NCBI GenBank assembly: GCA_016714125.1
Contig: JADJNX010000006.1
Span: forward strand, 111,681 to 175,680
DNA: 64,000 nt
Source of the DNA: Ignavibacteriales bacterium
GTDB taxonomy: Bacteria > Bacteroidota > Ignavibacteria > Ignavibacteriales > Ignavibacteriaceae
Direction of reading: 5' to 3'
Part shown: piece by piece, positions 5,700-34,621 of the stretch
Position numbering within the stretch: the stretch's first letter is position 1
How the letters are laid out: each line of letters starts with the position of its first letter
Translations under genes and position numbers: made by a program
Notes under the pieces: model-generated
Seen by the model: only the letters and a program-made list of their open reading frames with translations
Database searches by the model: none
Told to the model about the DNA's origin: nothing

Positions 5700-6904
5700 T
5701 TATAAACCAAGAGCCTTAAGATAATCAGAATTGATAATACAGTTTTTCAATTTGATATTTTCGAGATATTGCGCGAGGATGGTTTTGATCTTCGCCTGAT
5801 CGGGTTTGTTATCTCTGATATATCCATAAGAGACATCAAATTTATTCGAAAAGTTTATTATCAAGTCATAATCGCTTGGCGGCACGATTGAGGTTATTCC
5901 CCTTTCGCTGTTAAGTTTTTGTAAGGCCAAAAGCACCAGCCGATATTTTCCTTTTCGAGCATCGTACGGAATTCAGTTATCCATTCATTGGTGTTTTCAC
6001 CTGACTCACCCATCCAGATTGGCACCTGATACTTTTCACCAAAATCGATGTAGTCCTGCACCACATCCTTGGTTGCAGGGGTCCAGTATTTATGAAAAGT
6101 GTAAACCAGATTGTCATCAAACGGTTTCCCAAAAACTGAAAAATTGCTGTTCCACTGAGCACCGGCTATGAAGATAATATGATTTTTATCAACAGTTCTT
6201 ATTGCAGCAGTTAATCTCTTGAAAAAGGGTTCAAGCAGTGGATTCAATTTATCTTTGTCGAAGTAGTGGGCAATTGGTTCGTTGAGGAGGTCATAACCAA
6301 TAACTATTGGATCGTTTTTATAGGTATCCGCAAGTTTTGTCCAGATTCTGATCGTCAGATTTATGTTTTCTTCCGATTCAAAAAGGAAAGGATATCCATA
6401 ACTGTCGTCTATGTTGTCACCGGTTTGACCGCCGGGGGCGCAGTGCATATCGAGGACAACGGGGAGATCTTCTTCACGACACCACTTTACAGCGGAATCG
6501 AGAAGGGCGTAACCCGGACCCGTCAATTCCTGCTTTTCATCATCAGTAACAAAAAGCCGGTAATTAAAAGGTATTCTGATCGAGTTAAAACCACATTTTT
6601 TTAAAAACTTTATGTCTTCGCGAGTTGTGTAGTCAACTCTGAACTTGTTCCAAAATTTTTCTGCTTCACGCTCTCCCAAAAGGATATCAAAAAGATCATA
6701 GATGAGTCGGGGGGAGCTCACTTTTTCAAATTTAAACATGTATCCTTCAGGAACGAGCCAGTTTCCCAGCCCGATTCCTTTAAGAAGTACAGGTTTTCCC
6801 TGGGGATCGAGAATCTCTTTCCCCCTGGTAGAAAAGAATCCCTTTTGTTGGGGATGAATCAGTCCAACAGCAGAAACAAAAAGGAGAAGCCAGAGGTATC
6901 TCAT
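5700..6904 (-). CDS. Glycoside hydrolase family 5 (beta-glucanase), reading frame broken near 5918
   Basis: GIGLGNWLVPEGYMF, LLNEP and GESGEN motifs. ORF 5894-6904 stops at WPYKNLTAKGE. ORF 5700-5936 continues plausibly (..KLNSERGITSIVPP..) across an A5/T5 run. Confidence 0.7.
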
Positions 6905-8232
6905 TATTTCGCCTTATGAGCAGCTTTTTCAAAACTTGGGACACTGCCTGCTATTCCGTAATAAGCGATAAACGCATAACAGAGAACAGGGAGTATAAAT
7001 GCATGATGCAGACCTATTGAAGAGTCGGCGATGAGTCCCTGAAGAACAGGGATAAGTGCGCCACCAACTATTGCCATACAAAGAATTCCGGATGCCTGTC
7101 CCGTATGTTTACCAAGTCCTTTAATTGCAAGGGAAAAGATAGTTGGGAACATGATCGAATTAAATAGCCCAACGAGAAGAATTGACCAGATGGCAACCTG
7201 ACCATTTGTGAGCATCGAAACAACCACCAGAATAGCTGCGGCAACAGCGTTAAATCCAAGCACCTGGCCGGGATTAATTTTCCTTTGAACTGCCGAGCCG
7301 ATGAATCTTCCAACCATCGCACCACCCCAATAGAATGAAACAAGTTTTCCTGCATCCATTTCAGCGAGGGAGTTATCAAGGAATACAAAATAGTTAACAA
7401 GGAAACTGCCAATTGCAACTTCAGCACCTACATAAACGAAGATACCAACAGCTCCGAGAATCAAGTGTTTATAACCCCATGCACTTGGGTGAAGATCGTC
7501 ATAACTCTGTTTTGCACCATCTTCAGATTCAACACTTCCGGCTTCAATTTGGGGCAATTTAATATAAGCAAATACCGCAGACAGGATCAAAAGAGCTGCA
7601 GCAAGACCGAGATACGGAATTTGAACAGCAGTAGCTTCTGCTTCGATGTATGCGTTTAAAGCTGCCGGTGCCATTTTGGACATTTCCTCTGATGTTTTCA
7701 CAGCAGTTGAAAGGATAAGGAGTGATCCAAAATATGGAGCAACGGTTGTTCCGAGTGAATTAAAGGCCTGTGTTAAGTTCAACCTCGATGAAGCCGTCTC
7801 AGGTTTTCCGAGAATTGTAACGTAGGGATTGGCTGCAACTTGAAGAAGTGTAATACCGGCGGCAAGGATAAAAAACGCCAGGAGAAAAACAGGATACGAC
7901 CTTAAACCTGCAGCGGGATAAAATATCATTGTTCCCACACCTGCGGTAAGCAGACCAATCACAATTCCTCTTTTATAACCAATCTTCTCAACTAATTTTC
8001 CAGCCGGAAGTGAAACGAGGAAATATGCAAGGAAAAAAGTGAATTGTACCAGCATCGATTCTGTGTAGCTGAGTGAAAAAACACTTTTAAGATGGGGAAT
8101 GAGGATGTCGTTTAGACAGGTAAGAAATCCCCACATAAAAAAGAGGGAAGTCAGTATCGTCAATTCAGGCATGTAGTTTGCTGTACTACCGTTGTTTTTT
8201 ATTTTACCGGCATTAGGTATCGTTGTTGCCAT
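6904..8232 (-). CDS. MFS glucose/galactose (FucP/GluP family) sugar:H+ symporter
   Basis: 12-TM profile and an N-terminus typical of the FHS family ([23 protein letters not shown]). Its stop overlaps the GH5 start (TAATG). Confidence 0.85.
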
Positions 8233-8374
8233 TATATCTCCGTTGGACTGAATAGGTTATTTCAAAGTCAATATATACTCAATAATTGTGCCCTTAAATA
8301 ATTGTTGGAATTCGACCGATTAATGTGGTTAAGATAGTCGGGAATTCGTGTCGTATTATTATTTTAATAATTTC

Positions 8375-8393
8375 AACTTATCAAATTAATAAA
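8375..8393. promoter_or_regulatory. AACTTATCAAATTAATAAA motif (imperfect TTATCAA-N-TTGATAA palindrome)
   Basis: Shares 18 of 19 nt with 12759-12777. Lies in the divergent region between the MFS/GH5 and sensor operons. Confidence 0.4.
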
Positions 8394-8474
8394 TATCGGC
8401 GGGATAAATGAACAGCGAGGGGAAAAATCTAAAATTTAATAATCTATATTTGCATTAAAATTTGCGGAAAGTTT

Positions 8475-9788
8475 ATGAATCTCGAAAAGATATTTTACAT
8501 TGTGGCGAGCACGGTACTTGTAACGGTATTTGTGTTGATAGTTTTCATTTTTTCACCTGTGTCATATGACGAAAGTCTGACTCAGAACGAAAAGGTGATT
8601 TACTATGCAGAGAACATCTCTCCCTCATTGCGAAAGATCATCGACGGATTTAATGAAAAATATAAAGGAAAGATCAGGGTGGAGACTATTGATCTTTCAT
8701 TTGATAAATTTAGTACCAATGAGCGGAAAGAACTTCTTGCCCGATACCTCAGAAGCAAAAGCAGCAGAATAGATATTTTTAGTGTTGATATAATCTGGGT
8801 TCCCCGTTTTTCAAGGTGGGCATTGCCACTTAACAGATACATCGACTCGTCTCTTGTTACGGATATTGTCCCCCATTTTCTTCCCACAAGTTATTACAAC
8901 GATTCTCTGGTTTCGATTCCTCTTTATGCGGATATTGCATTGATGTTTTACAGGGACGACCTGTTGGACAAGGTTCAGGGAGCAGAGGAATATCGTAAGG
9001 AATTGTCCTCCTCAATCACCTGGGAGAGGTTAATTGATCTAAAAATGAAGGTGGATGCCTCAAACGGGAGGGTTAACAAACCATTTTATCTTTTTCAGGC
9101 GGATGCCTACGAGGGGTTGATGTGTTCATTTACCGAATTGATGAGCAACTACAAAAATCCGATGGTGGCTTCGGAAGTGAAGCTGGGAGAAGATGATGAA
9201 TTGTCGAAAAAGTCGATCAAATTCCTTATTGATCTTGTTCACCAATATAAAATTTCGCCACCGGAGGTAATAAAATTTAAGGAAATGCAGAGTTTTCAAT
9301 ACTTTTTTGAAAATGAGGCATTTGCTGTAAGAGGATGGCCCGGATTTTTGAGCGGGGACAACAAGTTTTTCCCCAACGAGTTAAGGGGGAAAGTAAAGGC
9401 TGCACCACTTCCACATCTCGATGGAAGTTCACCTGCGTATGTTTTTGGCGGTTGTAACCTTATGGTCTCAAAACTTTCCTCCAAAATTCAGGAAGTCAGG
9501 ATATTTATTGATTATATGTTAAGTGATGAGATTCAGAAATTTCACTACGAAGACGGGAATGTTTTACCTGTGAAAAACTCTGTTTATTCTGATGCCGCAT
9601 TTTTGAAGAAACACCCCGAGTTGGTCTTTTATCAAAAACTGTTTGAAAACGGGATTCACAGACCAATGTTCGAGAGATACACAGGACTTTCTGACATAAT
9701 TGTCAAACACATAAATGAAGCGATTGAAAAAAATCTTGAGCCGGGTCAGGTTTTGGAGAAGATCAAAAACGAGATAGGGGCGAAATAG
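8475..9788 (+). CDS. Membrane-anchored extracellular solute-binding (ABC SBP-like) sensor protein
   Basis: One N-terminal TM helix, then an SBP family 1-like domain. No ABC permease or ATPase is nearby; the gene is immediately upstream of a kinase. Confidence 0.7.
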   Translation: MNLEKIFYIVASTVLVTVFVLIVFIFSPVSYDESLTQNEKVIYYAENISPSLRKIIDGFNEKYKGKIRVETIDLSFDKFSTNERKELLARYLRSKSSRIDIFSVDIIWVPRFSRWALPLNRYIDSSLVTDIVPHFLPTSYYNDSLVSIPLYADIALMFYRDDLLDKVQGAEEYRKELSSSITWERLIDLKMKVDASNGRVNKPFYLFQADAYEGLMCSFTELMSNYKNPMVASEVKLGEDDELSKKSIKFLIDLVHQYKISPPEVIKFKEMQSFQYFFENEAFAVRGWPGFLSGDNKFFPNELRGKVKAAPLPHLDGSSPAYVFGGCNLMVSKLSSKIQEVRIFIDYMLSDEIQKFHYEDGNVLPVKNSVYSDAAFLKKHPELVFYQKLFENGIHRPMFERYTGLSDIIVKHINEAIEKNLEPGQVLEKIKNEIGAK

Positions 9789-9795
9789 AACAATC

Positions 9796-11268
9796 ATGAA
9801 ACAGAGTATTTCAAACAAAATAAAAGAGTATCATTTTGAGTTCAGGCACGTAACCGTGCTCTTCATAATTCTCTTTTCATTCCAGCTGATCGTTTCTTTT
9901 ATCAATAAATCATCTATTACAAATTTCCTTGATACAACTCAGGATTGGTATCAAAAGGAGTCGGCAGAAGAGATTGCAAACCTTACTGCGACGGTGATCG
10001 AACTTGCCATCGAATCGGTTGATCCCAAAGATAAGATTCCCCCGGCTCAGGCGAACAAGGTGATTCAGTCGTTGGATATCATATTCAGTCAGCAGCAGCT
10101 TACTCATAATATTGACCAGCTTTTCATAATCATGCAAAATGATGGGAAAACATATAATATTAATGATGGTAGAGCCCTTTATACCGCTGTCATACATGCA
10201 GATCATTCACTTTTATCCATAGTTATTGATAAAAATGTAGCAACCCTTTATACTTCCATCGAGGGAGAATTAAAGTCAACTGAGAGAATTAAAACAGTGG
10301 TCAGGGACAAACAAACCTTCCATGTATTTGTTCCATTTGTTGTGAGGGGGGAGTTTATTGGAGCAATCTATATGAAGATCTCACCCGATTTCAGTTCCAT
10401 AAGTAATCAGGTAATCAGCAGTTATGATGAAACTTCCGTTATTTATCTTTCTCTGATCACTCTTGGTCTTCTTGCAATGTATTTTATCTCATCCTACACC
10501 GTTAAAGAGAGGGATGAGACCCAAAAACTTCTTTTTGATGAACACGAAAAGAGTCTGAAAAAACAGATTAATTACGAAAATGAACTGATCTTTACCAAAC
10601 GGATCTACCATACACATCATAAAGCAGAAAAAGTGATGGGGTTCATAAAAGAGGATTTACGAATGTTGGAGCTCGACAATATCGATGAGGTTAAATATCG
10701 TGTTGCAAAATATTCCAACTTTGTTTCGAGAGTAATCTATGATATGAAGTGGTTTGATCCTCCAATCCAGACAATCAGAAACCAGATGTTTCGGACTGAT
10801 CTTAACGAAGTGGTGAGATTTATCGTTGGCAATATTTTCCAGCGGGTAACAACTGAGACTGATGCCTACAAGATTGAATATAAGTTGGAACAGAATTTGC
10901 CTGTTGTTAATGTGAATGAATTTGTGGTGTGGGAAATTATTGAGCCACTTATACAAAACAGTATCGACCATGGATGTGAGGACAATCTTGTTGTCACGGT
11001 GGAGACCCAACATGATCCTGAGAAAAAATGTTCATTCCTTAGTATAACTGACAACGGGAAGGGAATCGATGGCAGTTTGCTTAAAATAAATGAAAATGGA
11101 ATCAAGTATCTGTTTGTGGAGAACACTACCACAAAGTCGCAGGGTTTACGAAACTCGGGATACGGCTGTTATATCGCCTGGGAGATGACAAAGAGGTGCG
11201 GTTGGGAGCTTGATGCGCAAAATCTTCCTGAAAAAGGATGCCGGTTTACAATTACAATAAAACATTAG
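9796..11268 (+). CDS. Sensor histidine kinase
   Basis: Two TM segments flank an extracytoplasmic domain. Has a histidine-rich dimerisation region (IYHTHHKAEK), an N-box (EPLIQNSIDHG) and G-boxes (DNGKGI, GYGCY). Confidence 0.75.
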   Translation: MKQSISNKIKEYHFEFRHVTVLFIILFSFQLIVSFINKSSITNFLDTTQDWYQKESAEEIANLTATVIELAIESVDPKDKIPPAQANKVIQSLDIIFSQQQLTHNIDQLFIIMQNDGKTYNINDGRALYTAVIHADHSLLSIVIDKNVATLYTSIEGELKSTERIKTVVRDKQTFHVFVPFVVRGEFIGAIYMKISPDFSSISNQVISSYDETSVIYLSLITLGLLAMYFISSYTVKERDETQKLLFDEHEKSLKKQINYENELIFTKRIYHTHHKAEKVMGFIKEDLRMLELDNIDEVKYRVAKYSNFVSRVIYDMKWFDPPIQTIRNQMFRTDLNEVVRFIVGNIFQRVTTETDAYKIEYKLEQNLPVVNVNEFVVWEIIEPLIQNSIDHGCEDNLVVTVETQHDPEKKCSFLSITDNGKGIDGSLLKINENGIKYLFVENTTTKSQGLRNSGYGCYIAWEMTKRCGWELDAQNLPEKGCRFTITIKH

Positions 11269-11286
11269 AGAGATTGAGAGACAGAA

Positions 11287-12744
11287 ATGATCTTCCAGGA
11301 TAAAAATATTAGTATCCTCCTTATTGAAGATGAAGAATTTGATGTAAGAAGAGTGAAGAAAACCGTAGAGCCATTTTCGGAAAAGATGGAAATTGTCCAT
11401 TATGTTTCAAACGGAAAGGCTGCTCTCGAATATCTTGAGGAGAACCGGAACAAAATTGATGTGGTGATAATGGATTACCAGATTTCCGGCGGTTTGATGG
11501 GTGAAGATCTGATTCACAAAATCAAAACCATCGATTCATCAATACAGATAATTGTTATCACAAAAATGACAATTAATCTTTCGGATTATCATTTTGCCAA
11601 CCGGCTTATTAAGGCGGGAGCTTTCTGGTACTGCACCAAATATCCGGGTGATATTGATGATTTTATTTATCAGCCTACTGATTTTATTCTCAGTATTTTT
11701 AATGCCCATGAAAAAAGTCTGCTCGAACGGGAGAGAATGCGTTCGATGCAAAAAATTAAACGGAATGTTGCTGATATTCTTTTGCAGAAGAAGATTATCG
11801 GTGAATCACCTTTGATGCTTGATCTAAAAAACGATCTCGACCGACTCGCTCAAAGCAACATCAACATCCTCATAAGGGGGGCTTCGGGTACCGGGAAGGA
11901 ACTGGTAGCGCATAATATCCATTATCGCAGTGGTCGAAAATATGAAAATTTTGTAGTGGTCAACTGCGGCAGTCTTCCCGACCAACTTGTTGAAAGTGAA
12001 CTTTTTGGTTATGAAAAGGGGGCATTCACGGGAGCCGACAAGAAAAAACCGGGTCTGTTTGAGATAGCAAACCATGGAACAATTTTTCTCGATGAGATAA
12101 CTGAACTTCCACTTGCAGCGCAGGTGAAACTTCTAAGAGTGATTCAGGAAGGTGAAATCGAAAAGATTGGCAGGACAGAGACAGTTAAAGTTGATGTGAG
12201 GGTAATAGCTGCCACAAACAGGAATATTGAGCAGGAAGTAAGGGAAAAGAGATTCCGTGAAGACCTCTACTACAGGCTAAATGTTCTTCCCGTTGTTGTT
12301 CCGGACTTAAAAAAACGGGTTGATGACATTCCGTCCCTCATCGATCACTTTTTGCGAAATATAAGTATTGACATGGGGAAGGAAAAGCCGGTAATACCCA
12401 ACGAAACTATGCAGATATTTGTGAAATACGACTGGCCGGGAAATGTAAGAGAGCTTAAAAATGTCGTGCAAAGAGTGTTGTTCCATTCGGGGAATACTGT
12501 TTCACCTATGAATGCAGTAAAAGCTCTAGGCATTGTTTATGAAACGGGGAGTGGTGACGATGGTTTTAAGGATATATTTAATCCAGAAAATATAATTGAT
12601 CTAAAGGATGCTGAAAGAATATTCAGAGAACGATATTTTAATTTTGTAAGAACTCATTCAGTTTCAGATGCCGATGCCGCCAAAAAAATGGGAATCGCCC
12701 CTCCCAACTATTACAGAATGATGAAAGAATTGGGGTTGAAATAG
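11287..12744 (+). CDS. Sigma-54-dependent response regulator (NtrC-family enhancer-binding protein)
   Basis: Receiver domain, AAA+ Walker A GASGTGKE, the GAFTGA loop (EKGAFTGAD) and a C-terminal HTH. Confidence 0.9.
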   Translation: MIFQDKNISILLIEDEEFDVRRVKKTVEPFSEKMEIVHYVSNGKAALEYLEENRNKIDVVIMDYQISGGLMGEDLIHKIKTIDSSIQIIVITKMTINLSDYHFANRLIKAGAFWYCTKYPGDIDDFIYQPTDFILSIFNAHEKSLLERERMRSMQKIKRNVADILLQKKIIGESPLMLDLKNDLDRLAQSNINILIRGASGTGKELVAHNIHYRSGRKYENFVVVNCGSLPDQLVESELFGYEKGAFTGADKKKPGLFEIANHGTIFLDEITELPLAAQVKLLRVIQEGEIEKIGRTETVKVDVRVIAATNRNIEQEVREKRFREDLYYRLNVLPVVVPDLKKRVDDIPSLIDHFLRNISIDMGKEKPVIPNETMQIFVKYDWPGNVRELKNVVQRVLFHSGNTVSPMNAVKALGIVYETGSGDDGFKDIFNPENIIDLKDAERIFRERYFNFVRTHSVSDADAAKKMGIAPPNYYRMMKELGLK

Positions 12745-12758
12745 GGCTCCGGTCTTTT

Positions 12759-12871: not shown

Positions 12872-12887
12872 TGGCATGATTTGTGCA
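12872..12887 (+). promoter_or_regulatory. Candidate sigma-54 promoter TGGCAT-N5-GTGCA
   Basis: GG and GC elements have canonical spacing and end 30 nt before the ATG at 12917. A second, one-nt-short candidate TGGCAGGGGTTTGCT lies at 12800-12814. Confidence 0.45.
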
Positions 12888-12916: not shown

Positions 12917-14544
12917 ATGCCCAACACATTTACCTATTTAGACACTGCTGTAATAGTAATATACTTGATAATCGTATTGAGTATCGGTTTTTACTATTCC
13001 CGGAAAAACGATGAAAGTTATACTGACTACTTTCTCGCCGGTAGAAATGTGGGCTGGATCGCAATAGGTATCTCAATTTTTGCAACCAACATTTCGAGTG
13101 AACATTTTATCGGACTTGCAGGAGCGGGCTCAACAAGAGGCCTTGCAGTGGGGCAGTTCGAATTAATGGCCATTTTATGCTCATATTTGCAGGGTGGTTC
13201 CTTGCTCCAATTTTTATTAAATCGGGCGTGTTTACAGTACCTGAATTCCTTCAGTTAAATTTTGATGTAAGGATCAGGAAACTTTTTGCTGCTTTTTCAA
13301 TTGCCAACTACATCCTCACCAAAATTCTCGTCTCCCTCTTCGCCGCAAGTCTTCTCTTTTATAATATTTTTGGATTAAACATATACGCTTCCTCGATATT
13401 AATAGTATTAATAACAGGACTTTACAGCGTTATTGGCGGCTCAAATGCTGTGATAAGAACCCAGACATTCCAGGGAATTGTATTGATGACGGGGGCAGTG
13501 ATTCTTTCGGTTATCGGTTTTATGGCTGTTGGTGGATTTGAAGGTCTTTACAGTAAATTGCCGGCAGATTATTTTACCATGTTTAAAGCGATAGATGACA
13601 AAGATTATCCCTGGACAGGGATAGTGTTTGGAGCTCCCGTAATTGCATTTTGGTATTGGTGCACCGATCAGTATATGGTTCAAAGAATGTTAAGTGCAAG
13701 ATCGATAGACGATGCACGAAAGGGTTCACTTCTTGCAGCCTCATTTAAACTCCTTCCTATATTTATCCTTGTACTTCCCGGTTTGTTTGCAGCAGTACTT
13801 TACCCAGAATCAAGGGGTGATGGAGCCTACTCTGCGATGGTCAGTGGTGATCTGCTCCCGATGGGATTAAAAGGGGTTGTAATTGCAGGGCTTTTAGCTG
13901 CAATAATGTCTTCGCTCGCAGGAGCTTTTAACAGTATTGCGATTCTTTTCACAAACGATTATTACAAATTAAAATATCCTGACGCAAACGAGAGAAAACT
14001 TGTGCTTGTGGGCAGACTCGCCACCACAACGGCAGTTATTGCTGCAATATTAATTGTGCCCCTCGTTAAGATTATCAGTTCACAGCTTTATCTTTTTCTG
14101 CAAAGTGTGCAGTCATTTGTGAGTCCTCCCATTACTGCTGTATTTCTGTTTGGTCTCTTTTCGCGTAAAATGAACACCAGATCGGCACTTATTACTTTAG
14201 CAGTTACCGAAACACTTGGAATGGGCAGACTTGTGCTTGAAATGATGGTTCAGAATGGGGTAGAGCTTCATTCGTTCCTTAATTGGGTGTTGTCGATCAA
14301 CTTTCTTCACTACTCCCTATTCCTTTTTATTGTAAGTGTGGGGATGATTTTGACACTCAACTTTAATAACAGCATTGAAACAAACAAATTTGGGATTCAG
14401 CTCAGGGCAACTTTTGCCGAGAGTTTTGCCGAGATTACGGGGAATTTTACCGGTTTAAAAAGATTCGTAAAACCGAACCCGAGTTTTCTTCTTTCAGCTA
14501 TTATTCTGCTGATGATCCTTGGGCTCTGGAGCATCTGGTCGTGA
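12917..14544 (+). CDS. Sodium:solute symporter (SGLT-like sugar transporter), frame broken near 13172
   Basis: SSS-family TM profile. ORFs 12917-13258 and 13177-14544 join as ..FELMAIFMLIFAGWF.. if a T4 run is read as T5. Confidence 0.85.
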
Positions 14545-17097: not shown

Positions 17098-17171
17098 CAT
17101 TTCTCCCTGTGGATGCAGAAGCTGCAATTTCTGCACCCATTGTTTAGTTTCGATAATTTTGGGATATTCCG

Positions 17172-19889: not shown

Positions 19890-19905
19890 TTCCCGGAGTT
19901 TCAGA

Positions 19906-24069: not shown

Positions 24070-24077
24070 TGTGAGTT

Positions 24078-24118: not shown

Positions 24119-24150
24119 ATCAATGAAATTGAGCTTATGAAAAAAGAAAT

Positions 24151-25935
24151 TTGTTACTGCTTATAGCCTTCCTTCTGTTGACGATGGCTGTTCAAGCCAA
24201 GGACTTTAAAGGCGCCGAATTCAGAACCAAACAGGCCTTCCTTTACGGCAGGTTTGAGGTTAATATGAAATCAGCCGCCAGGAGATGGAGTGTTATCAAC
24301 TTTTTTACATATCACGAGTTCACAACCGGAATACAGGACTGGAACGAAATCGATATCGAAATACTTGGAAGGTACGATTACGATATTCAGTTTAACCCCA
24401 TTACTCCCGGACAGGTAAATCACACCAGTCATTTCCCTGCACCTTTCAGCCCACACACAGATTATCATACCTATGCTTTTGAATGGACGCCTACTTATGT
24501 CGCATGGTTTGTTGACGGTGTTGAAGTTCACAGACAAACGGGATCGCATATTGAAGCTTTAAATAAAGCTCAGAAACTTATGATGAACAACTGGACTCCA
24601 ACCTATGCAAACTGGGCGGGCACACTTAATGTGGATGCACTTCCGGCGTTTGCATATTATGACTGGGTGAAATATTACAACTATAACCCCGGTGGTGGAA
24701 ACTACGGGACCAATAACAATTTTTCCCTCTCCTGGAGTGACGAATTTGAATTCTGGAATACTGCCCGCTGGGAGAAAGGCACCCACACTTTTAACGGTAA
24801 CAACTGCGATTTTGTGACTACAAATGCAGTCTTCAGAGATTCAAAACTTATCCTTTGTTTAACTGATGCAGTAAACCTTGGTTACACCGATGTTAAAGCT
24901 CCTGTGGTTCTCTCTGCAAGAGTTCATGACAACAAAGTGATAGCTTATTTTACCGAGGAACTTGATTCAGTTACCGGACAAAACGTTGCAAATTTTAACA
25001 TAGTTGGTGCAACCGTTCAGAGTGTAACTCTCAGGAGTGATCCAAGAAGTGTTGAACTTACCGTTTCAGATTGGGATTTCACGACCACCAAAAACCTGTT
25101 GGTAATGAATGTTAAAGACAGGTTTAACAACACCTCCGCTCCAAAAGCTGTGACTATCATTCTTCAAAGGAACTGGACATATCCAATCAAACTTAACTGT
25201 GGTGGACCTCAGGTCGATATCGGTTGGATGGCAGATACAGAGTGGAACCTGGCAGGACTTTATGGTTTTCTCGATGGACAAACAGCAGCCTATTCGTCAA
25301 ATCTGCAAATAAACGGCACCGATGAGGATGAAGTCTATCGCAATGAAAAATACGGAATGGCAAACTACAGAGTTCGTGTTCCAAACGGAAGATATAAAGT
25401 AAAACTAATGTTTGCTGAAAACTATTTTACAAGCGCCAACAAAAGAATTTTTAGTGTCTTTCTTGAGAGCATCAAAGTATTAAACAACCTCGATATATTT
25501 GCTGAAGTTGGAACAAGTACTGCTTTGGTTAAAGACTTCACCAATATTGTTGTTCAGGATGGAATTCTCGATGTCCATTTTGCTGCACAGATTGACAATC
25601 CTGTGATCAGCGGAATAGTAATCGAAGCTGATCCAACCGGTATTCAGGATGGACAGTCAGAATTTCCGGGTGATTTCTCGCTTAATCAAAATTATCCCAA
25701 TCCGTTTAACGGGCAGACGGTGATTTCTTTTAATGTTAACAAACCGGATTTTTTTCGGTTTGCCCTGTTCAATACTATGGGAGAAACAGTTTTTGAGGAT
25801 GATCTTGGCTACCTTGAACAGGGCTTTCACTCCTTCCCGTTGGGGACCACTGAATTTGGTTCCAGTGGGGCATATTTTTATTCCATCTCCGGGACGGGTA
25901 GAACCGAAACGGGTAAACTTGTTTACTTGAAGTGA
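24151..25935 (+). CDS. GH16 endo-beta-1,3(4)-glucanase with malectin-like domain and T9SS CTD
   Basis: Catalytic motif WNEIDIEILG, malectin-like IKLNCGG...VPNGRYKVKLMFAE and CTD NYPNPFNGQTVISF. An ATG at 24138 (MKKEI) is out of frame by one nt, so the true start is probably there. Confidence 0.85.
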   Translation: MLLLIAFLLLTMAVQAKDFKGAEFRTKQAFLYGRFEVNMKSAARRWSVINFFTYHEFTTGIQDWNEIDIEILGRYDYDIQFNPITPGQVNHTSHFPAPFSPHTDYHTYAFEWTPTYVAWFVDGVEVHRQTGSHIEALNKAQKLMMNNWTPTYANWAGTLNVDALPAFAYYDWVKYYNYNPGGGNYGTNNNFSLSWSDEFEFWNTARWEKGTHTFNGNNCDFVTTNAVFRDSKLILCLTDAVNLGYTDVKAPVVLSARVHDNKVIAYFTEELDSVTGQNVANFNIVGATVQSVTLRSDPRSVELTVSDWDFTTTKNLLVMNVKDRFNNTSAPKAVTIILQRNWTYPIKLNCGGPQVDIGWMADTEWNLAGLYGFLDGQTAAYSSNLQINGTDEDEVYRNEKYGMANYRVRVPNGRYKVKLMFAENYFTSANKRIFSVFLESIKVLNNLDIFAEVGTSTALVKDFTNIVVQDGILDVHFAAQIDNPVISGIVIEADPTGIQDGQSEFPGDFSLNQNYPNPFNGQTVISFNVNKPDFFRFALFNTMGETVFEDDLGYLEQGFHSFPLGTTEFGSSGAYFYSISGTGRTETGKLVYLK

Positions 25936-25978: not shown

Positions 25979-28232
25979 ATGAAACGATCGTTATTATTTA
26001 CAATTTCAATATTATTCTTTGGTTTAACTACCATGCTCAACGCACAAAGAGATGATAATAACTTAAAAAGTGAAGTGAAAAAACTTCTGGATAAAATGAC
26101 GATCGAGGAAAAGATCGGGCAGATGACTCAAGTTACAATTCAGACTGTTTCAAAAAAACAAGGAAACAAAGACCAGCATCACGAACTTGATCTTGCCAAA
26201 CTCGAAGAAGTGGTTGTTAAATACAATGTTGGATCACTCCTTAATGTTTATGATAAAGCGCATGAAATTGAATACTGGCACGAAGTGATCACAAAAATTC
26301 AGGACCTTGCCACAAAAAAGACACGGCTTAAAATTCCTGTGCTTTATGGTATAGACGCCATCCATGGTGCCACATACACTTTAAACTCCACACTTTTCCC
26401 TCAATCACTTGGAATGGCTTCAACTTTTAACAGGGAATTAGTTAAAAGGAGCAGAAATTACAGCAGTTGAAACTTATGCTTCGGGAATTCCATGGAATTT
26501 TAATCCCGTTCTTGATGTTGGAAGACAATCATTATGGCCAAGATTATGGGAAACAATGGGAGAAGATCCATATCTTGTATCAGAACTTGGAAGCACATAT
26601 GTAAAAGCAATGCAAGAGAACAACCTTGTTCCAAAAGACCGTTTCCTCGCATGTCTAAAACATTATGTTGGCTACAGTTTTCCTTTTAACGGACTTGACA
26701 GAACCCCTGCCTACATGTCTGAGAGAACCCTAAGAGAATTTTTCCTCCCTCCATTTGAAGCAGCAGTAAAAGCCGGAGCTTTAACCGTGATGGTTAACTC
26801 AGGTGAAATTGATGGAATTCCGGGACATGCCAACTTTCACCTCCTTACGGAAGTATTAAAAGGTGAAATGAGGTTTCAGGGATTTGTTGTCTCCGACTGG
26901 GAAGATATTAAAAGACTTTTTACTCGTGACAGAGTGGCTGAATCACCAAAAGAAGCAGTTTTTATGGCTGTTATGGCAGGAGTTGACATGAGCATGGTTC
27001 CAACAGACCTTAGCTTTTATGATCTCCTTCTTGAACTTGTTAAAGAGGGTTCCGTTCCCGTTTCCCGTATCGATGATGCGGTTAGCAGAATTTTATTTGT
27101 AAAAATGAAACTTGGACTCTTCGAAAACGCATATCCTGACAAATCATTTTTATCAAAATTTGCAACTCCCGAAAACACACAGGCAAATCTTGATGCAGCT
27201 CGTGAATCAATAGTCCTGCTCAAAAACGACAAAAATATCTTACCCTTGGGAAAAGATAAAAAAGTATTTGTTACCGGACCAACTGCTGATATGTTATCAG
27301 TATTAAATGGTGGCTGGACTGTTACATGGCAGGGTAATGAAGAATCACTTATGCAGAGTGATAAAAAAACCGTTGTTAAGGCGATGATTTCCGAAGTATC
27401 GTCAAAAAATATAATCTACAATCCGGGTTGTTCGTTTGATAAAATGCTCGATGTTGACAATGCAGTTAAAAGTGCAAAAGAATCTGATGTTATAGTTCTT
27501 TGTCTCGGTGAACCGGCATATTGCGAAACACCCGGAAACATCAACGATCTTACACTCCCAAAAGCACAGTTGGACTACGCCAAAATGATGATTGCCACAG
27601 GAAAGCCTGTTGTTCTTGTTATGATTGAAGGCAGACCAAGAGTTATAACTGAAATTGCCGACAAAGTTGATGGAATTATTGTTGCATTTCTCCCCGGTAT
27701 GCAGGGTGGTGTTGCTATTTCAGATGTATTATATGGAATGACCAACCCAAGTGGCAAACTTCCAATAACTTATCCCAAGTCACCAAATGCCATTACACTT
27801 TACGATTACAAACCGATCGAATTTTTTGACGGCAATGGTTACAACCCACTTTATCCATTTGGTCATGGTTTAAGTTATACTAAATTTACATATTCGGATT
27901 TGAAGCTTAGCGCAGACAAAATCACAGAAAATGAAGAGTTAAAAGTGTCGGTTACTGTAAAAAATACCGGTAATGTAAAAGGGAAAGAATCTGTTCTGCG
28001 TTATCTGACCGATCTTTTTGGAACAGTTTCCAGACCAAACAAACAATTAAAAGGTTTTGACAAAATTGAACTTGCACCGGGTGAAAGTAAAACAGTTCAC
28101 TTCACACTTGGTTATGAACATCTGTCGTTCATTGGTGCCTCCAACAGCAGGATTGTTGAGTTGGGTGAATTTGTTGTAACTATTGGTGATCTTAAATCCA
28201 AGTTCAAACTTGTATTTGGTGGTGGGAAATAA
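25979..28232 (+). CDS. bglX: GH3 beta-glucosidase (BglX-like), frame broken near 26447
   Basis: GQMTQV, GIDAIHG, VSDWEDI and KHYVGYS motifs. ORFs 25979-26470 and 26556-28232 join as ..ELVKGAEITAVETYASGIPWNFNPVLDV.. if an A4 run is read as A3. Confidence 0.85.
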
Positions 28233-28234
28233 AA

Positions 28235-30217
28235 TGAATTTATTTGTAAAAGTTCTCCCCCGGGTAGTATTAATGTTGGTTTTTGCAATGCCCCTTGCTG
28301 CCCAGGGATTTTTGAAAGTCTCCGGAAAAAATATTGTTAACGGCGTGGGACAAAATTATGTCCTCAAAGGTGTAGGCTTGGGCGGATGGCTGCTCCAGGA
28401 AGGATACATGCTTCATACTTCAGCCTTTGCAAATGCCCAATGGCAAATTAGAGCCAAAATCACTGATTTGATTGGTGAAACAAACACTGAAACCTTTTAC
28501 GAGACTTATCGAAACAATTATGTAAAAAAAGTTGATATTGATTCTCTTAAAGCTTGGGGTTTTAACTCAATACGGTTGCCGTTCCACTACAATCTTTTTG
28601 CCACTAACACAAATCCACCTGTCTTTTTGCAAAAGGTTTTGATTATACTGATTCACTCCTTGCATGGTGTAAAGCAAATCAGATCTATCTCATACTGGAT
28701 ATGCACGCAGCCCCGGTGGTCAGAGTAATGAACCGATAAGTGATTATAATCCTGCATTTCCTTCTTTATGGCAAAGTGAGCAGAATAAAGACCTCACTGT
28801 AAAAATCTGGCGTAAACTGGCAGAGAGATACAAAGATGAAGAATGGATCGGCGGATATGACCTGCTTAACGAGCCCAAATGGGACCTTGGAACTAACAAT
28901 GTTCCACTTCGCAATCTTTATATCAGACTCACTGACACTATTAGAGCTGTTGATACGAATCATATAATTTACATTGAAGGTAACTGGTTTGCAACCGATT
29001 TTTCAGGGTTAACACCTCCTTGGGATGCCAACCTGGTTTATAGTTTCCACAAATACTGGAACACAAACAACACCGGTTCAATTCAGTATCTGCTCGATCT
29101 TCGCAATAACTTTAACAGACCTTTATGGCTGGGTGAAACGGGTGAAAACTCAAATCAGTGGCTTTCAGATTTTGTGGAATTGATGCACAACAACAATATA
29201 GGCTGGGCTACCTGGCCTCACAAAAAAATTAAGTCAATTGCGGGACCTCTTTCAGCCACACTTTCGCCACTGTATCAGACACTTCTGAATTATTGGAATG
29301 GATCGGGATCGAGGCCAACTGCAACTTATGCTCAGGGTGCTCTGATGGCTCAGGCAAACGCACTTAAACTTGAGATGTGCACCTACAACAAAGATTATGT
29401 ATATGCTCTGTTGAAGCAACCATTTACAACCACTTCAATCCCGTTTGCAGAGAATCTGATTCCGGGAACGATCTACGCACCCAACTATGACATGGGAAAA
29501 CAGGGAGTCGCTTACTCGGACGTAGCTTATCAAAACACCAATAATGGAACTGCCTATAATTCCGGATACAACTACAGAAATGATGGTGTTGACATCGAAC
29601 AGTGCAGCGATTTTTCGTCGAACGGATATGATGTTGGTTGGATAGAAAATAATGAGTGGCTTGCTTATACCGTGCAGGTTCAGACGAGTGGTGTTTACAG
29701 TGCAGCTTTTAATGTTGCCGCTCAAAGTGCCGGTGGACAAATTTTTGTGTTGGTTGACGGACAAGGTTTAAGCATGGTTAATATCCCTGCAACTGGTGGC
29801 TGGCAGAACTGGCAGAATGTTATTCTGCAGAATATCAATCTTACAGCCGGAACTCATAAACTTACCCTACGGTTCTACAACGGCAGTTTTAACCTCAGCA
29901 ATATCGATTTTACTTTAATCTCTACCGATATTGAAGATGAGACTCAATTGCCCGTGGAATTTGCTCTGAGCCAAAACCATCCAAACCCGTTTAACCCCTC
30001 CACGATTGTTAAATATTCACTTCCTGTTGACGGATTTGTCAACATCAGTGTATATAATAATCTTGGTGAAAAGGTATCAGTTCTTGTTGATGGTGAAGTG
30101 AGTGCCGGGGAATATTCAGTTTCTTTTGATGCCGGAAATCTCCCGAGTGGAGTTTATTTCTGCAGAATGGAATCCGGAAATTTTATCTCCTCCCGCAAAA
30201 TGCTGCTGTTAAAATGA
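28235..30217 (+). CDS. GH5 glucanase with CBM6-like module and T9SS CTD; frame broken near 28625 and 28715
   Basis: Signal peptide MNLFVKVLPRVVLMLVFAMPLAAQG. GVGLGGWLLQEGYM, LLNEPKW and GETGEN motifs. CBM6-like GYDVGWIENNEWLAYTV. CTD NHPNPFNPSTIVKY. The breaks lie in a T5 run and a C4 run. Confidence 0.8.
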
Positions 30218-30291: not shown

Positions 30292-30329
30292 AATTCGTTT
30301 AATTAAATACACTATGAAAAGGAGTTTAT

Positions 30330-33300
30330 ATGAGTCTGAGAGTGATTAAACCCGGACTTTTTGTTTTTTTTATCATGCTCCTTTTTCTTCAGAGCGTAAA
30401 TCTTAATGGACAGTCTGTTCAGGTTGGGAATGGCAGTTACAGCACCGTACTACCTTCCGGAGCTATCGGACCATCATCCTCACAAGGCTCGCCTGTAGTT
30501 CCAAAAGTTTCATTAAGTTTTAATCAGCCTGTTCAGACCAACGATTGGTGGAGCAGCCTGATTTTTCCGTTTTACGGGAGTCAACATTCCAATACCTTGT
30601 ATGTGTTACCTTTAGTGGTAAAAGCGGGAGCCGATGGATTGGGAATGGGATATACAAAAGATCCGGTTTTTGCAGCAGCAGATTACCTGTACCCATATCA
30701 ACAGCAACTTACTGTTGGCGTTGAGGGATTAAATTCATCAAGAACGCTCGTTGAAGGGTATGGTGACTGGACAGTAACAGCATCGTGGAATGACGGGGTC
30801 AGATCGATGAAAACCACTATTGGTCACGGTTTGCCTTATGCATTTTTTACCCTTGCCGGTGGGAATGCAAAAGTGGTATGTAAAGAGACACCGGTAATCT
30901 GGTCAAATTCCAACGGAGTTGTTGGTTTAACTGTTGCAGGCAGACATTATGGTATATTTGGACCATCTGGCTCGGTCTGGACGGGCACCACGACACTTGT
31001 ATCAAACCTCAACGGAAAAGATTTTCTTTCCGTGGCGATTTTACCCGATAACACCCCCGCAACTTTGGAATATTATAGAAAACGGGCTTATGCTTTTGTG
31101 ACAGGCAGTACCGTATCCTGGACTTATGATAAACAAAATGCTGAGGTTGTTACCAATTTTAGTTATCAAAGCGTGTTAAAAGACAGCGCAGCAGGGAACC
31201 TGAATGGAACCTTGACTGCATTGTTCAGACACCAGTGGATTAATACAAACGCCCCCTCACTTCATATTCTTATGTCTCCGTAAGGGGTCAAATGAAAATA
31301 TTTGACGGGAATACCTTTTCAACAACCAACGATTTTAATGGTATCCTTCCCGCTTTCCCCGATGAAGGAATTTATAATCCTGCAATTTTGGGATCCTATA
31401 TCGATTCAATTGCAATGGAGACACTCTCTCCGGACCAATCTATGAGAACGGGAAATCAATCGCCAGATTTGCTCATGTTGTGAGGATAGCCGATCAACTT
31501 GGAAAAACCGCTGCTCGTGATCACTTCCTTCAGCAGATTAAAAACAGACTTGAAGCATGGTTAACCGTTGGCGGCGGAGCAGAAATTTCATGGATTGCCA
31601 ACTGGAATACTCTTTCTGCATACCCATCAGGGTATGGAGCGGATAACCAGCTTAACGACCATAATTTTCATTATGGGTACTTGATTGTAGCTGCCGCAAC
31701 TTTGGCTCAATACGACCCCCAATGGGCTTTGGAATCGCAGTGGGGTGGAATGATCAACCTGCTCATTAAAGATTGTGTGAACTGGGACAGGAACGACAGA
31801 AGATTTCCTTTTTTAAGAAGTTTTGATCCGTATGAAGGTCACTCGTGGGAAGCAGGTCACGGAGATTTTGGCGACGGAAACAATGAGGAATCCAGCTCGG
31901 AATCGATGAATTTTGCTTATGGCGTGGCTTTATGGGGTTCTGTAACTCAAAATGATACCATTCGAGATCTTGGGATTTATCTCTATGCTAACGAAAGAGC
32001 TGCAATAGAACAATACTTTTTTGACATAGATAATGTAGTTTTCCCGGCTTCTTATCCCAGAACTGCTTTGGGTATGGTTTGGGGTGGCAAAGGTGTATAT
32101 TCCACCTGGTTTGGTGCCGATCCCGAATTTATCCACGGAATTAACTTCCTCCCAATGACGGGTGGATCGTTATATCATGGAAGAAATCCTGAATATATCG
32201 ATATAAATTACGGCGAAATGGTGAACGAAATTGGAAGCAAACCCCGCAAGTGGAAAGATGTTATTTGGCAGTGGTATGCTTTTTCTGATCCACAATTTGC
32301 GATGAATCAGTTTTATGCAGAACCTTATTACGAGCAGTTTGATGGAGAATCCAGGGCGCATACTTATCACTGGCTGGGTAATCTTAGGAAAATCGGGAAG
32401 CTTAACACCACTGTAACTGCTGATATTCCTACTTATGCGGTTTTTAAATCGGGTTCACAAAAGAATACCTATGTGGCGTATAACCCGGGAAACAGTCCCT
32501 TGACTGTTAATTTTTCAGATGGATACTCGATGTTGGTCCCGGGAAGATCGATGAAATCTTTCAACAGTGACACTTCAGGTGTGGGGATGCCCGTGGCAGT
32601 TCCAATATCCGATGTTTCAAAGGGAAAAGCTCCACTTACTGTAAAGTTTAAGGGGAGTAACAGTTTTGACAGAAACGGCACCATTACCTCATATCATTGG
32701 GATTTTGGTGATTCCACAATGGCTTACAGTGCTGATACAACCCATGTCTACAGAAATCCCGGCGTTTACACAGCGGTTCTTACCGTTAAAAACAATTTAA
32801 ATCTCACCGGTGTTGGTGAGATTGTAATCACTGTGGATGGAAACGGCACACCTTATACCGGAACTCCAAAAACTGTTCCCGGTAAAATTGAGGCTGAGGA
32901 ATTTGATCTTGGTGGTGAAGGAGTTGCTTATCATGACAGTGATCCTCAAAATGTAGGAGTTCCATTCCGTCCAAATGAGGGAGTTGACATCGAAGGATGT
33001 GGAGATGTTGGTGGTGGATATGATGTCGGCTGGATAAAGGCAGGTGAATGGATGGAATATACCATTAATGTGACTGAGACGGGATATTATGACTTCTCAG
33101 CCAGAACAGCCTCTGTCCCGGGGGGTGGAGCATACCACATCGCTATTGACGGAATTAATGTAACAGGTAGAAAGACTGTACCTGTAACAGGTGGATGGCA
33201 GTTCTGGACAAATGTAATCTCAACAAGCATCCGGCTCGAAGCGGGTGTACACATCATGAGATTTGAAGCTGAAGGACCGGAGTTTAATTTTAACTACATT

Positions 33301-33615
33301 AACATTGTTCGCAACCTGACAGGAATTGAATCAACAGCAGCGGATCAACCAACGGAATATACTCTAAATCAAAATTATCCAAATCCGTTTAATCCTTCTA
33401 CTGCTATCCGGTTTGCATTGCCGCAATCGGGTCTCGTGAAACTTGTTGTTTATAATTCTCTTGGCGAAGAGCAGACAACACTCATTAACGGGATGATGGA
33501 ATCCGGATTTCATTCGGTCGTTTTTGATGCTAAAGGACTTCCAAGTGGAGTTTATTTTGTGAGAATGGTTGCCGGCAACTATATTTCGACCAAAAAAATG
33601 GTTTTATTAAGATGA
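30330..33615 (+). CDS. GH81 endo-beta-1,3-glucanase with PKD domain, CBM6-like module and T9SS CTD; frame broken near 31253 and 31430
   Basis: GH81 signatures LNDHNFHYGY, EGHSWEAG and NEESSSES. PKD segment PLTVKFKGS..YHWDFGDS..GVYTAVLTV. CBM6-like GKIEAEEFDLGGEGVAYHD. CTD NYPNPFNPSTAIRF. The first break is in a C5 run. Confidence 0.8.
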
Positions 33616-34532
33616 GTAGAAACTTCAAAGGAAGCAAAACAATAGTTAAAATTGTTTTGTTGCTCTTTTTTATTTTGTTTATTGGCTGTAAAGGATCAGA
33701 GAGTTCTCCAACGGATCCCGGAGATCCCGGTGTTGTGGTGCCAACAAAAAGTCCAAAGAGGGGGCTTTCATACAACCTGACAAACAGCAGCGACTTTGCA
33801 GCACTGAAAAGTGGTGTCTCCTGGTGGTATAACTGGTTTTATACAACAACAGCACCAACGGGGTATTATTCCGCCTACGAGATGGAATTTATCCCTATGC
33901 TTTGGGGAGGAAGTCCCTCAAGCAACGATATTCTCGCAGTTAAAAATTTCATTTTGGGTCATCCTGAAGTGAAATATCTGTTGGTAATGAATGAACCCAA
34001 TCTCACTGATCAGGCAAACAGAACCCCGCAGCAGGCGGCCGCCGACTGGCCAAAATATGAACAGGTTATTGCCGATCTTGCAGCCCAGGGAAGGACAATT
34101 TATCTTGTGGGTCCTCAAATGAATTGGGGTACAATGACAAATTATTCCGATCCCGTTGTGTGGCTTGATGCTTTTTATACTGCGTATAAAGTTAACAATG
34201 GCGGTGTGCCACCCAAAATCGATTATCTTGCATTTCACTGGTATGATTATGGACTGGCGGCTCAGTTGGACAGATTAAAAAAATATGACAAAAAAATCTG
34301 GATAACCGAAATGGCTAACTGGAATCCTCAAATCAACAGTTATGCAAAACAGGCAGAACAAATGACTCAGATGGTTGCAGTTTGTGAGAGCAGAAGTGAT
34401 GTTTTCCGTTACGCCTGGTTCATCGGAAGAGGAGGACTGCCCGATAATAAATATACCTATCTTTTTGAACAAACTCCCGGTCAGTTAAATGACTTGGGGC
34501 GGCTCTATCTTAGTCTGCCTTGGACTAAATAG
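33612..34532 (+). CDS. GH128-like (Glyco_hydro_cc) beta-1,3-glucanase lipoprotein
   Basis: Lipobox LFIGC. KRGLSYN...SWWYNW, EFIPMLWGG, VMNEPN and IWITEMANW motifs. ATGA overlap with the GH81 stop. Confidence 0.7.
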   Translation: MSRNFKGSKTIVKIVLLLFFILFIGCKGSESSPTDPGDPGVVVPTKSPKRGLSYNLTNSSDFAALKSGVSWWYNWFYTTTAPTGYYSAYEMEFIPMLWGGSPSSNDILAVKNFILGHPEVKYLLVMNEPNLTDQANRTPQQAAADWPKYEQVIADLAAQGRTIYLVGPQMNWGTMTNYSDPVVWLDAFYTAYKVNNGGVPPKIDYLAFHWYDYGLAAQLDRLKKYDKKIWITEMANWNPQINSYAKQAEQMTQMVAVCESRSDVFRYAWFIGRGGLPDNKYTYLFEQTPGQLNDLGRLYLSLPWTK

Positions 34533-34568
34533 ACCACAATTTAAATCTAAACGGTTAAAATACACAAC

Positions 34569-34599
34569 AAAAAGGCTGCCAATTTTGGCAGCCTTTTTT
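34569..34599. terminator. Bidirectional rho-independent terminator
   Basis: AAAAGGCTGCC-AATTTT-GGCAGCCTTTTTT lies between convergent genes. Confidence 0.75.
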
Positions 34600-34621
34600 A
34601 ATATATAATCCCGACGGTTGG

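Follow-up and report, generated by a model that had tools for sequence, protein, structure and literature searches.

In a 64,000-nt stretch of DNA from an Ignavibacteriales bacterium (contig JADJNX010000006.1, positions 111,681 to 175,680; hereafter the window), open reading frame (ORF) listing and Pfam/NCBIfam scans revealed wall-to-wall carbohydrate-utilisation genes between 5.9 and 34.6 kb. Between a TonB-dependent receptor and an outer-membrane barrel of the PorV/PorQ family, this locus encodes a 1039-aa all-beta protein, which an earlier note on the same DNA had missed. We rate the locus as belonging among the TonB-dependent polysaccharide utilisation loci (PULs), and we lean, with slightly more confidence than doubt, towards reading it as the Ignavibacteria version of a beta-glucan PUL in which the 1039-aa protein, held on the PorV-like barrel, acts as a stand-in for SusD beside the receptor.

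The 3.1 kb between the receptor gene (17172-19889, plus strand) and the barrel gene (23040-24069, plus strand) hold a single gene, identified by frame analysis at 19906-23025 on the plus strand. Two ORFs, 19813-21405 and 21412-23025, appear there in one frame with a stop between them, and the intervening 50 nt are conserved in another frame; compensating indels at 21378 and 21426 explain the two-ORF reading. Full-length homologues of exactly 1039 aa and 96% identity were present in the protein database, and homologues from Ignavibacterium spp. are ∼80% identical. Spacers are short: 17 nt separate the receptor gene from the 1039-aa gene, and 15 nt separate the latter from the barrel gene. The protein has a type-I signal peptide, lacks a lipobox and matched no Pfam or NCBIfam family. 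An exhaustive HMMER search of this family returned 4320 cluster representatives at 50% identity, 662 of them with E < 1e-30; members are named only 'hypothetical', and those of named origin come from Ignavibacteria, KSB1, Delongbacteria, Calditrichota, Rhodothermaceae, Marinimicrobia, Natronogracilivirga and unclassified Bacteroidota metagenome-assembled genomes (MAGs).

Gene order around the receptor, the 1039-aa protein and the barrel is conserved. Scanning a single genome for each GTDB species recovered 422 relatives of the 1039-aa protein; the top 80 all belong to Ignavibacteria. Synteny was counted on 56 species-level Ignavibacteria loci with full 10-kb flanks. The 1039-aa gene is flanked by the receptor and the PorV-like barrel in 56/56 of these loci and in 10/10 distant loci (∼40% identity), where a CarboxypepD_reg-type TonB-dependent receptor is found on one side and a PorV/UPF0164-type barrel on the other. 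Receptor and barrel are thus present in all 56, accompanied by the sodium:solute symporter family (SSF) transporter in 55, a secreted protein with a CBM9-like module in 50, GH3 in 46, GH16-malectin in 40 and GH5-CBM6 in 27. GH81 was counted in at least 4/56 and GH128 in at least 1/56, values which are lower bounds because the 10-kb flanks barely reach GH81 and end before the expected position of GH128. The core kept across Ignavibacteria consists of GH16-malectin, GH3 and GH5-CBM6, and the same gene order was found in the annotated contexts of one Ignavibacterium genome and two Melioribacteraceae assemblies. Judged by synteny, the locus is a standard Ignavibacteria beta-glucan arrangement and not peculiar to the source genome.

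The outer-membrane trio is common to Ignavibacteria, Rhodothermaceae, Calditrichota, KSB1-like and other lineages, with changing company. At least 7/10 distant loci have a protein of 835-1176 aa, often CBM4_9-like, that carries a type IX secretion system (T9SS) C-terminal domain (CTD) and precedes the trio. A distant Melioribacteraceae locus combines the trio with GH9, GH16, GH3 and GH5; loci from Rhodothermaceae, Calditrichaeota and others combine it with LacI, a sugar ABC importer and GH130; and locus L092 has a GH100/GDE-like gene. In locus L089 (7292-23075), a first unit (receptor, 1024-aa protein, PorV-like barrel) is separated by genes for a rotamase and an FG-GAP CTD protein from a second, in which the receptor is followed by a 1167-aa protein reaching past the locus end; GntR/LacI-type regulators are present, and no glycosidase was found within 10 kb. 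Compared with the proteins of L004, the corresponding locus of an Ignavibacteriaceae MAG, cross-phylum cassettes show 38-40% identity for the receptor, 41-45% for the 1039-aa protein and 42-45% for the barrel: in sequence, the trio proteins diverge in step, the 1039-aa protein being rated the best conserved of the three. The sole part of the upstream CTD protein shared between L004 and the GH130-type cassettes is the CTD. To judge by gene order, the trio acts as one unit to which various enzymes, importers and regulators are joined. We found no description of this cassette in the open-access literature, an earlier account elsewhere being possible; the Melioribacter genome paper covers only a SusCDE operon and CTD-bearing carbohydrate-active enzymes (CAZymes), not the cassette.

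To model the 1039-aa protein with AlphaFold2 (AF2), we used an alignment of 133 sequences including 116 distant members; the 17 close homologues alone had given a predicted local distance difference test (pLDDT) score of 46.5. The resulting model (pLDDT 88.6, predicted TM score 0.82) is all-beta and multi-domain, with very few helices, and therefore not a SusD fold. It comprises a beta-rich N-terminal domain (∼40-495), an FN3-like domain (∼496-640), two beta-sandwiches (641-935) and a C-terminal beta-sandwich (∼940-1039). Within the N-terminal domain, residues ∼300-400 are rich in aspartate, with DxDxDG-type repeats, and are confidently modelled but irregular; in the model these loops probably bind Ca2+. 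Low-TM Foldseek matches were to fibronectin FN3 arrays, to PorZ and to the N-terminal beta-sandwiches of GH94/GH149/GH116/GH161. Identity between cassettes is 46-63% for the N-terminal domain, the aspartate-rich loops, the FN3-like domain and the CTD, against 28-31% at residues 641-935.

The C-terminal end was examined using the last 110 residues of 16 diverse family members. The CTD segment of the PorU model was matched by 16/16 members (best E 1.2e-5) and that of the PorZ model by 15/16 (best E 1.5e-6), and the type-A generic CTD model gave sub-threshold matches in 12/16. A profile search of PDB sequences with the family found only the PorU CTD (6za2), at E 0.11. Identification of the protein as PorU, as PorZ or as an enzyme was rejected, since peptidase, propeller and (alpha/alpha)6 domains are missing and helices are scarce.

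The receptor preceding this gene comprises, by Pfam, a CarboxypepD_reg N-terminal domain, a TonB-box-like EVVITS, a plug and a barrel. Against the SusC/RagA model TIGR04056 it scored 64.5 bits (cut-off 368.25), the match being limited to residues 35-161 in the N-terminal domain, and by this measure the receptor is outside the SusC family. A profile and sequence search of the PDB found no close solved structure for it, N-terminal-domain matches only. Pfam scans of 60 ORFs, covering the entire window, gave no SusD-family match, and the tight tiling of genes leaves no room in the locus for a hidden gene of 1.5 kb. The view that this is not a canonical Bacteroidota PUL, put forward in the earlier note, therefore held, with the SusC model failed and SusD absent. 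Its further claim of a SusD-independent receptor stands only in part: SusD is indeed absent, but its position is occupied by the 1039-aa protein, followed by the PorV/PorQ-family barrel, in every locus examined. Other hallmarks of a canonical PUL are nevertheless found, CAZymes, transporter and regulator being co-located with the receptor and synteny being kept in the 56 loci. Between the genes for the CBM9 protein and the receptor is a weak terminator-like hairpin (17114-17135), which might reduce read-through and give the two halves of the operon unequal expression.

The barrel, FadL-like and interrupted by a 1-nt insertion at 23895, passes the PorV/PorQ family model NF033709 (183.5 bits, cut-off 90) and matches Flavobacterium johnsoniae PorV (6h3i_F) at E 1.9e-9, but fails both the PorV equivalog NF033710 (75.9 against 250 bits) and the PorQ equivalog NF033711 (104.2 against 220 bits). 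T9SS signals surround it. Three secreted enzymes exceed the 23-bit cut-off of the CTD model TIGR04183, namely GH16 (29.1), GH81 (39.4) and the second of the two GH5 enzymes, here called GH5b (35.1). The fourth CTD belongs to the CBM9 protein (14612-17097, plus strand; ∼828 aa), which consists of an N-terminal region of no known family, a CBM9-like module (CBM9_1, 49 bits) and a type-A T9SS CTD; here the CTD is broken by a 1-nt deletion at 16923 and readable in the next frame, and orthologues carry PF18962. The expectation of at least four secreted proteins with T9SS CTDs was thus borne out, one of them frame-shifted. The CBM9 protein is a candidate surface glycan-binding protein, for which profile and sequence searches of the PDB returned essentially nothing beyond CTD matches. 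No T9SS core gene occurs within the window.

All six glycosidases recognised previously were recovered by Pfam/NCBIfam, the profile scans placing their catalytic domains in the named families and not in unrelated ones; the CBM6, malectin-like, PKD and CBM9-like modules were likewise matched by Pfam, and the motifs EIDIE, NDHNFHYGY, GHSWEAG, ESSSES and NYPNPFNPST were each located in the window. The GH16 enzyme (24137-25935, plus strand; Pfam), with indels at 24140, 24282 and 24301, joins its catalytic domain to a malectin-like module and a T9SS CTD. Its nearest PDB entry is the Fibrobacter succinogenes 1,3-1,4-beta-glucanase (3axd/1mve; E 4e-49, residues 14-239). Matches to 1,3-1,4-beta-glucanases of the Fibrobacter and Bacillus type range from E 4e-49 to 5e-23, against 7e-8 to 5e-6 for laminarinases, and the top NCBIfam model is the lichenase BglS (139.5 bits, below the equivalog cut-off of 300). 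The EIDIE motif (24346-24360) lacks the extra residue typical of laminarinases. By alignment, this GH16 is of the lichenase type. The F. succinogenes enzyme is the best solved relative of the catalytic domain, to which the protein described here adds the malectin-like module and the CTD; its activity is predicted.

The remaining enzymes follow downstream on the plus strand, except for one GH5. The GH3 beta-glucosidase-type enzyme (25979-28232; Glyco_hydro_3, Glyco_hydro_3_C and Fn3-like; 2-nt deletion at 26448) has a signal peptide and no CTD, as does the minus-strand GH5 (5894-6904; PF00150, 105.7 bits), and both are therefore predicted to be periplasmic. The nearest structures to the minus-strand GH5 are 9ku5, CelC (1cec) and a Candida exo-1,3-beta-glucanase. 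GH5b (28234-30217; Pfam and TIGR04183; indels at 28635 and 28712) combines GH5, CBM6 and a T9SS CTD; its PDB neighbours are 9ku5, CelC and CBM6 modules, the GH5 family being supported via the intact L004 orthologue. GH81 (30330-33615; Glyco_hydro81C, PF17652, 180.5 bits; indels at 31256 and 31430), an endo-beta-1,3-glucanase with PKD, CBM6 and a T9SS CTD, matches 6fop at E 3.6e-112 and BhGH81 at 2.7e-86, its motifs lying at 31654-31905. The GH128 beta-1,3-glucanase-family protein (33612-34532; PF11790, 169.5 bits, cut-off 21) is a lipoprotein with the lipobox FIGC and matches 6uaw at E 1.2e-83. Since the GH16 is lichenase-type, the target would extend beyond laminarin to other beta-1,3-containing glucans, mixed-linkage glucan among them. 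Most likely, to judge from these families, the locus handles beta-glucans with 1,3 links, including both mixed-linkage 1,3-1,4-glucan (lichenan) and 1,3-glucan (laminarin). The earlier description of a laminarin-type target was right in that GH81 and GH128 are solid beta-1,3-glucanase families, and too narrow given the lichenase-like GH16.

Upstream of the cassette, the locus opens on the minus strand with GH5 and a major facilitator superfamily (MFS) inner-membrane transporter (6904-8232; PF07690, 89.5 bits), followed on the plus strand by a dedicated sensor system. The latter comprises a membrane-anchored protein with a solute-binding-protein-like sensor domain (8475-9788; SBP_bac_1, 57.9 bits; hydrophobic N-terminal anchor), a sensor histidine kinase (9796-11268; HATPase_c; N-terminal transmembrane segment) and an NtrC-type sigma-54-dependent response regulator (11287-12744; Sigma54_activat, PF00158, 236 bits, and Response_reg). 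Next comes the SSF sodium:solute symporter (12917-14544, plus strand; PF00474, 178 bits), which has a 1-nt deletion at ∼13173 and an intact L004 orthologue of 542 aa. Pfam/NCBIfam verified the families of the MFS and SSF transporters, TonB-dependent receptor, PorV-like barrel and sensor system, as previously proposed. A bidirectional intrinsic terminator (34569-34598; 13-bp GC-rich palindromic hairpin between A and T runs) closes the operon. The genes 3′ of it (YceI, pirin, a cyclic nucleotide (cNMP)-binding regulator, a pyridoxal phosphate (PLP) enzyme and a beta-lactamase-fold protein) are unrelated, and the previously drawn extent of ∼5700-34600 is therefore correct. These data support a co-oriented, operon-like carbohydrate utilisation locus with a dedicated sensor and two secondary transporters.

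A sigma-54-type -24/-12 promoter element, TGGCATGATTTGTGCA (TGGCAT-N5-GTGCA; 12872-12887, plus strand), lies ∼30 nt 5′ of the SSF start codon. This element was first noticed by reading the intergenic sequence and tested afterwards; it proved to be the sole match to TGGCA[CT]-N5-NTGC[ATC] on both strands of the window. A slightly looser motif occurs at the equivalent position in 15/56 orthologous loci (background rate 0.037 per 600 nt), and the exact consensus allowing one mismatch showed no enrichment in the window. With an NtrC-type activator and a -24/-12 promoter both present, we infer sigma-54-dependent two-component control, their function being predicted.

Ten plus-strand genes of the locus are interrupted by 1-2 bp indels (interrupted genes by ORF start: 12917/13177, 14612, 19813/21412, 23040, 24151, 25979/26556, 28183/29174 and 30330/31292/31480). 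In all, ∼13 frame-breaking indels were located in 20 kb, at 13173, 16923, 21378, 21426, 23895, 24140, 24282, 24301, 26448, 28635, 28712, 31256 and 31430, and short homopolymer runs adjoin most of those listed with their context. The window shares 90% nucleotide identity with L004 over 23 kb, and in L004 each interrupted gene lying wholly inside the compared stretch is a single ORF (GH3 751 aa, GH5b 678 aa), GH81 running past its end. Affected genes are unbroken in locus L001 too. Similar damage is found outside the locus, where priA is split (50443/51917; 50443-52897), aspS is truncated (57525-59018) and a PLP decarboxylase is split (53532/53995; 53532-54816). We attribute the breaks in the locus to sequencing or assembly error rather than decay, on the grounds of the same damage in these three genes and of the intact genes of L004; indels across the window, in essential genes, point to an error-prone assembly, probably long-read and unpolished. 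Frame correction is needed before any ORF-based interpretation of this window.

The reading that we prefer, in which the 1039-aa protein stands in for SusD, would proceed as follows. The membrane sensor resembling a sugar-binding protein would signal through the histidine kinase to the NtrC-type regulator, which would activate the sigma-54 promoter at 12872. The T9SS would export the GH16 lichenase-malectin, GH5-CBM6, GH81-PKD-CBM6 and CBM9 proteins, which would bind and cut glucan on the cell surface. The 1039-aa protein would itself be a T9SS substrate, one that retains its PorU/PorZ-like CTD, and this retained domain would attach it, without a covalent bond, to the PorV/PorQ-family barrel whose gene starts 15 nt 3′. 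Placed beside the receptor, it would pass oligosaccharides to it and so be a functional SusD stand-in of wholly different fold and anchor. The N-terminal domain, the aspartate-rich, probably Ca2+-binding loops, the FN3-like domain and the CTD would form a constant scaffold, and the fast-evolving sandwiches at 641-935 would be the likely ligand-specific part, capturing oligosaccharides. After entry via the TonB-dependent receptor, these would be trimmed by the GH128 lipoprotein and, in the periplasm, by GH3 and GH5, and the trimmed products would cross the inner membrane via the SSF and MFS transporters.

Several points weigh against this scheme. Substrate, induction, localisation and contact within the trio are all predicted from homology and synteny. 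Foldseek, run with the whole chain against the PDB, found no convincing relative of the 1039-aa protein (TM ≤0.2), which makes binding by its variable domains a conjecture. TIGR04183 gave 17.5-19.4 bits for this protein (cut-off 23), and its PorU and PorZ matches are local to the CTD and far under the cut-offs of the full-length models. The barrel might just as well serve the CBM9 CTD protein encoded upstream, or the enzymes. Across loci, presence of the sigma-54 motif did not correlate with adjacency of the regulator. Both GH5 enzymes, nearest to 9ku5, CelC and fungal exo-1,3-beta-glucanases, are assignable to family but not to a subfamily or specificity. Finally, were the ∼13 frame-breaking indels of the window copy real, the locus would be dead here.

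That last case, a pseudogene cluster decaying in the source organism, is one to which we give hardly any credence. Its support is the number of frame-breaking 1-2 bp indels within 20 kb. Like breaks elsewhere in the window, in priA, aspS and the PLP decarboxylase, the homopolymer runs beside most of the listed indels, two of which compensate within 48 nt, the 96% identity of the 1039-aa protein to intact homologues, indels aside, and the intact state of the affected genes in both L004 and L001 all oppose it. Pseudogenisation was rejected because the indels are associated with homopolymers and also occur in essential genes outside the locus. A locus dedicated to laminarin-type beta-1,3/1,6-glucan, with GH16 acting as a laminarinase, appears improbable, though less so than decay. 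The strong matches of GH81 and GH128, both beta-1,3-glucanase families, and CBM6 modules like those of beta-1,3-glucan-binding enzymes (BH0236, 5fui) speak for it, but the GH16 aligns far better with the Fibrobacter and Bacillus 1,3-1,4-beta-glucanases (E 4e-49 to 1e-23) than with laminarinases (∼1e-7), BglS is its best NCBIfam model, and what orthologous loci retain is GH16/GH3/GH5, with GH81 and GH128 counted in at least 4 and at least 1 of the 56 within the 10-kb flanks.

A more serious contender, although we think it unlikely, is that the receptor imports alone, as the earlier note had it, and that the barrel and the 1039-aa protein form a private T9SS shuttle or attachment pair, PorQ-PorZ-like, for the CTD enzymes of the locus. 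Membership of the barrel in the PorV/PorQ family would fit such a role, as would the resemblance of the 1039-aa CTD to those of PorZ and PorU, the appearance of PorZ (5m11) in Foldseek at E 1.6e-5 and the four CTD cargos encoded around the pair. Yet the pair stays directly behind the receptor in GH130/ABC loci, where the recognised enzymes lack a CTD; receptor, 1039-aa protein and barrel co-diverge; and the PorZ match has a TM of 0.10-0.14, the PorZ and PorU models matching the CTD alone. L089 moreover has two receptor-plus-large-protein pairs in tandem, which fit substrate-specific uptake units better than secretion accessories. Extending the SusD stand-in beyond this locus is more tentative. 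The trio, usually after a variable CBM-bearing CTD protein, may possibly be a widespread unnamed glycan-import module of non-Bacteroidia lineages of the Fibrobacteres-Chlorobi-Bacteroidetes (FCB) group, in which a T9SS-delivered, barrel-held protein does the job of SusD; as part of that tentative reading, the lineages would be Ignavibacteria, Rhodothermia/Balneolia, Calditrichota, Marinimicrobia and KSB1.

Comparison with known systems places the locus close to canonical SusC/SusD PULs such as the starch system of Bacteroides thetaiotaomicron and the laminarin PULs of marine Flavobacteriia, which carry GH16/GH17/GH3. Common to both are co-regulated CBM-bearing surface endo-glycanases, a surface binding protein, periplasmic exo-enzymes, an inner-membrane transporter and a dedicated sensor, together with a TonB-dependent importer with a CarboxypepD_reg-type N-terminal domain and a conserved partner gene directly after it. 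The partner differs: SusD is a helical lipoprotein of ∼550 aa, whereas the protein described here is 1039 aa long and, by its model, all-beta; it carries a signal peptide but lacks a lipobox, and its end is CTD-like. Unlike canonical PULs, the locus has an obligatory third component, the PorV/PorQ-family barrel, and its surface proteins are predicted T9SS cargos where those of canonical PULs are lipoproteins, GH128 being the sole lipoprotein in the locus.

In carbohydrate utilisation (CUT) loci, too, a SusD-less TonB-dependent receptor is grouped with glycosidases, a regulator and a sugar transporter of the inner membrane. These loci are not known to carry T9SS cargos, a PorV-like barrel or a large conserved partner after the receptor. 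Blanvillain et al. (2007) reportedly described them in Xanthomonas and other Proteobacteria.

A large secreted protein with a PorU/PorZ-like CTD and a FadL-like partner barrel of the PorV/PorQ family recalls the PorZ-PorQ and PorU-PorV pairs of Porphyromonas gingivalis. PorU and PorZ are T9SS proteins with uncleaved CTDs that stay bound to PorV and PorQ, the pairs being held together by the retained domain (PMC10202324). In our locus the two genes are adjacent, and retention of the CTD is predicted. The pairs are not orthologous, as the PorV, PorQ, PorZ and PorU equivalog models all scored below cut-off, and, unlike PorU and PorZ, the 1039-aa protein has no detected C25 peptidase or PorZ propeller domains. 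A further difference is that the pair described here always accompanies a TonB-dependent receptor in carbohydrate loci, and that two receptor-plus-large-protein units follow each other in at least one contig, L089.

Other features of the window were noted in passing. A PPIC-type SurA-like peptidyl-prolyl isomerase of 613 aa (3855-5696, minus strand) adjoins the locus, and SurA_N/rotamase genes lie directly 3′ of the cassette in two distant loci (L089 14228-15895 and L090 15120-16649); the isomerase may be a dedicated chaperone of the outer-membrane proteins of the cassette. Genes for a CarH/LitR-like regulator of the MerR family with B12-binding domains, for a DNA photolyase and for a phytoene-desaturase-like amine oxidase, near one another (49498-50421, 54898-56259 and 62345-63817), may constitute a light-responsive gene set, and an RNA ligase with a PHA02142-type OB-fold domain (56574-57377, minus strand) is found between the photolyase and aspS. 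An HTH_3 (Cro/C1-type) gene overlapping a Fic/DOC-family gene (41382-42433) looks like a toxin-antitoxin-like pair; it belongs to a stretch of small ORFs where GC content is lower (0.36 at 40-42 kb). GC dips to 0.33-0.34 at 1-2000, spanning a LuxR-type response regulator and a HisKA_3 kinase, and at 46001-48000, compared with ∼0.40 elsewhere in the window.

PUL prediction relies on SusC/SusD pairs, as does much of the current view of how the FCB group turns over glycans, and loci of this kind are therefore counted only as loose CAZyme clusters. The combination of receptor, ∼1050-aa protein and PorV-like barrel offers a compact marker, one that picks out carbohydrate uptake loci with varied enzyme sets in lineages common in sediments, hot springs, anammox reactors and the ocean. 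If the tentative wider reading is true, the module would provide SusCD-type uptake by a second, independent means, invisible to SusC/SusD-based PUL predictors, and if the anchoring model is true, the PorQ-PorZ principle of a retained CTD on a private barrel would extend from the secretion machine to nutrient uptake. Culturable carriers, Ignavibacterium album, Melioribacter roseus and Rosettibacter primus, make the model directly testable.

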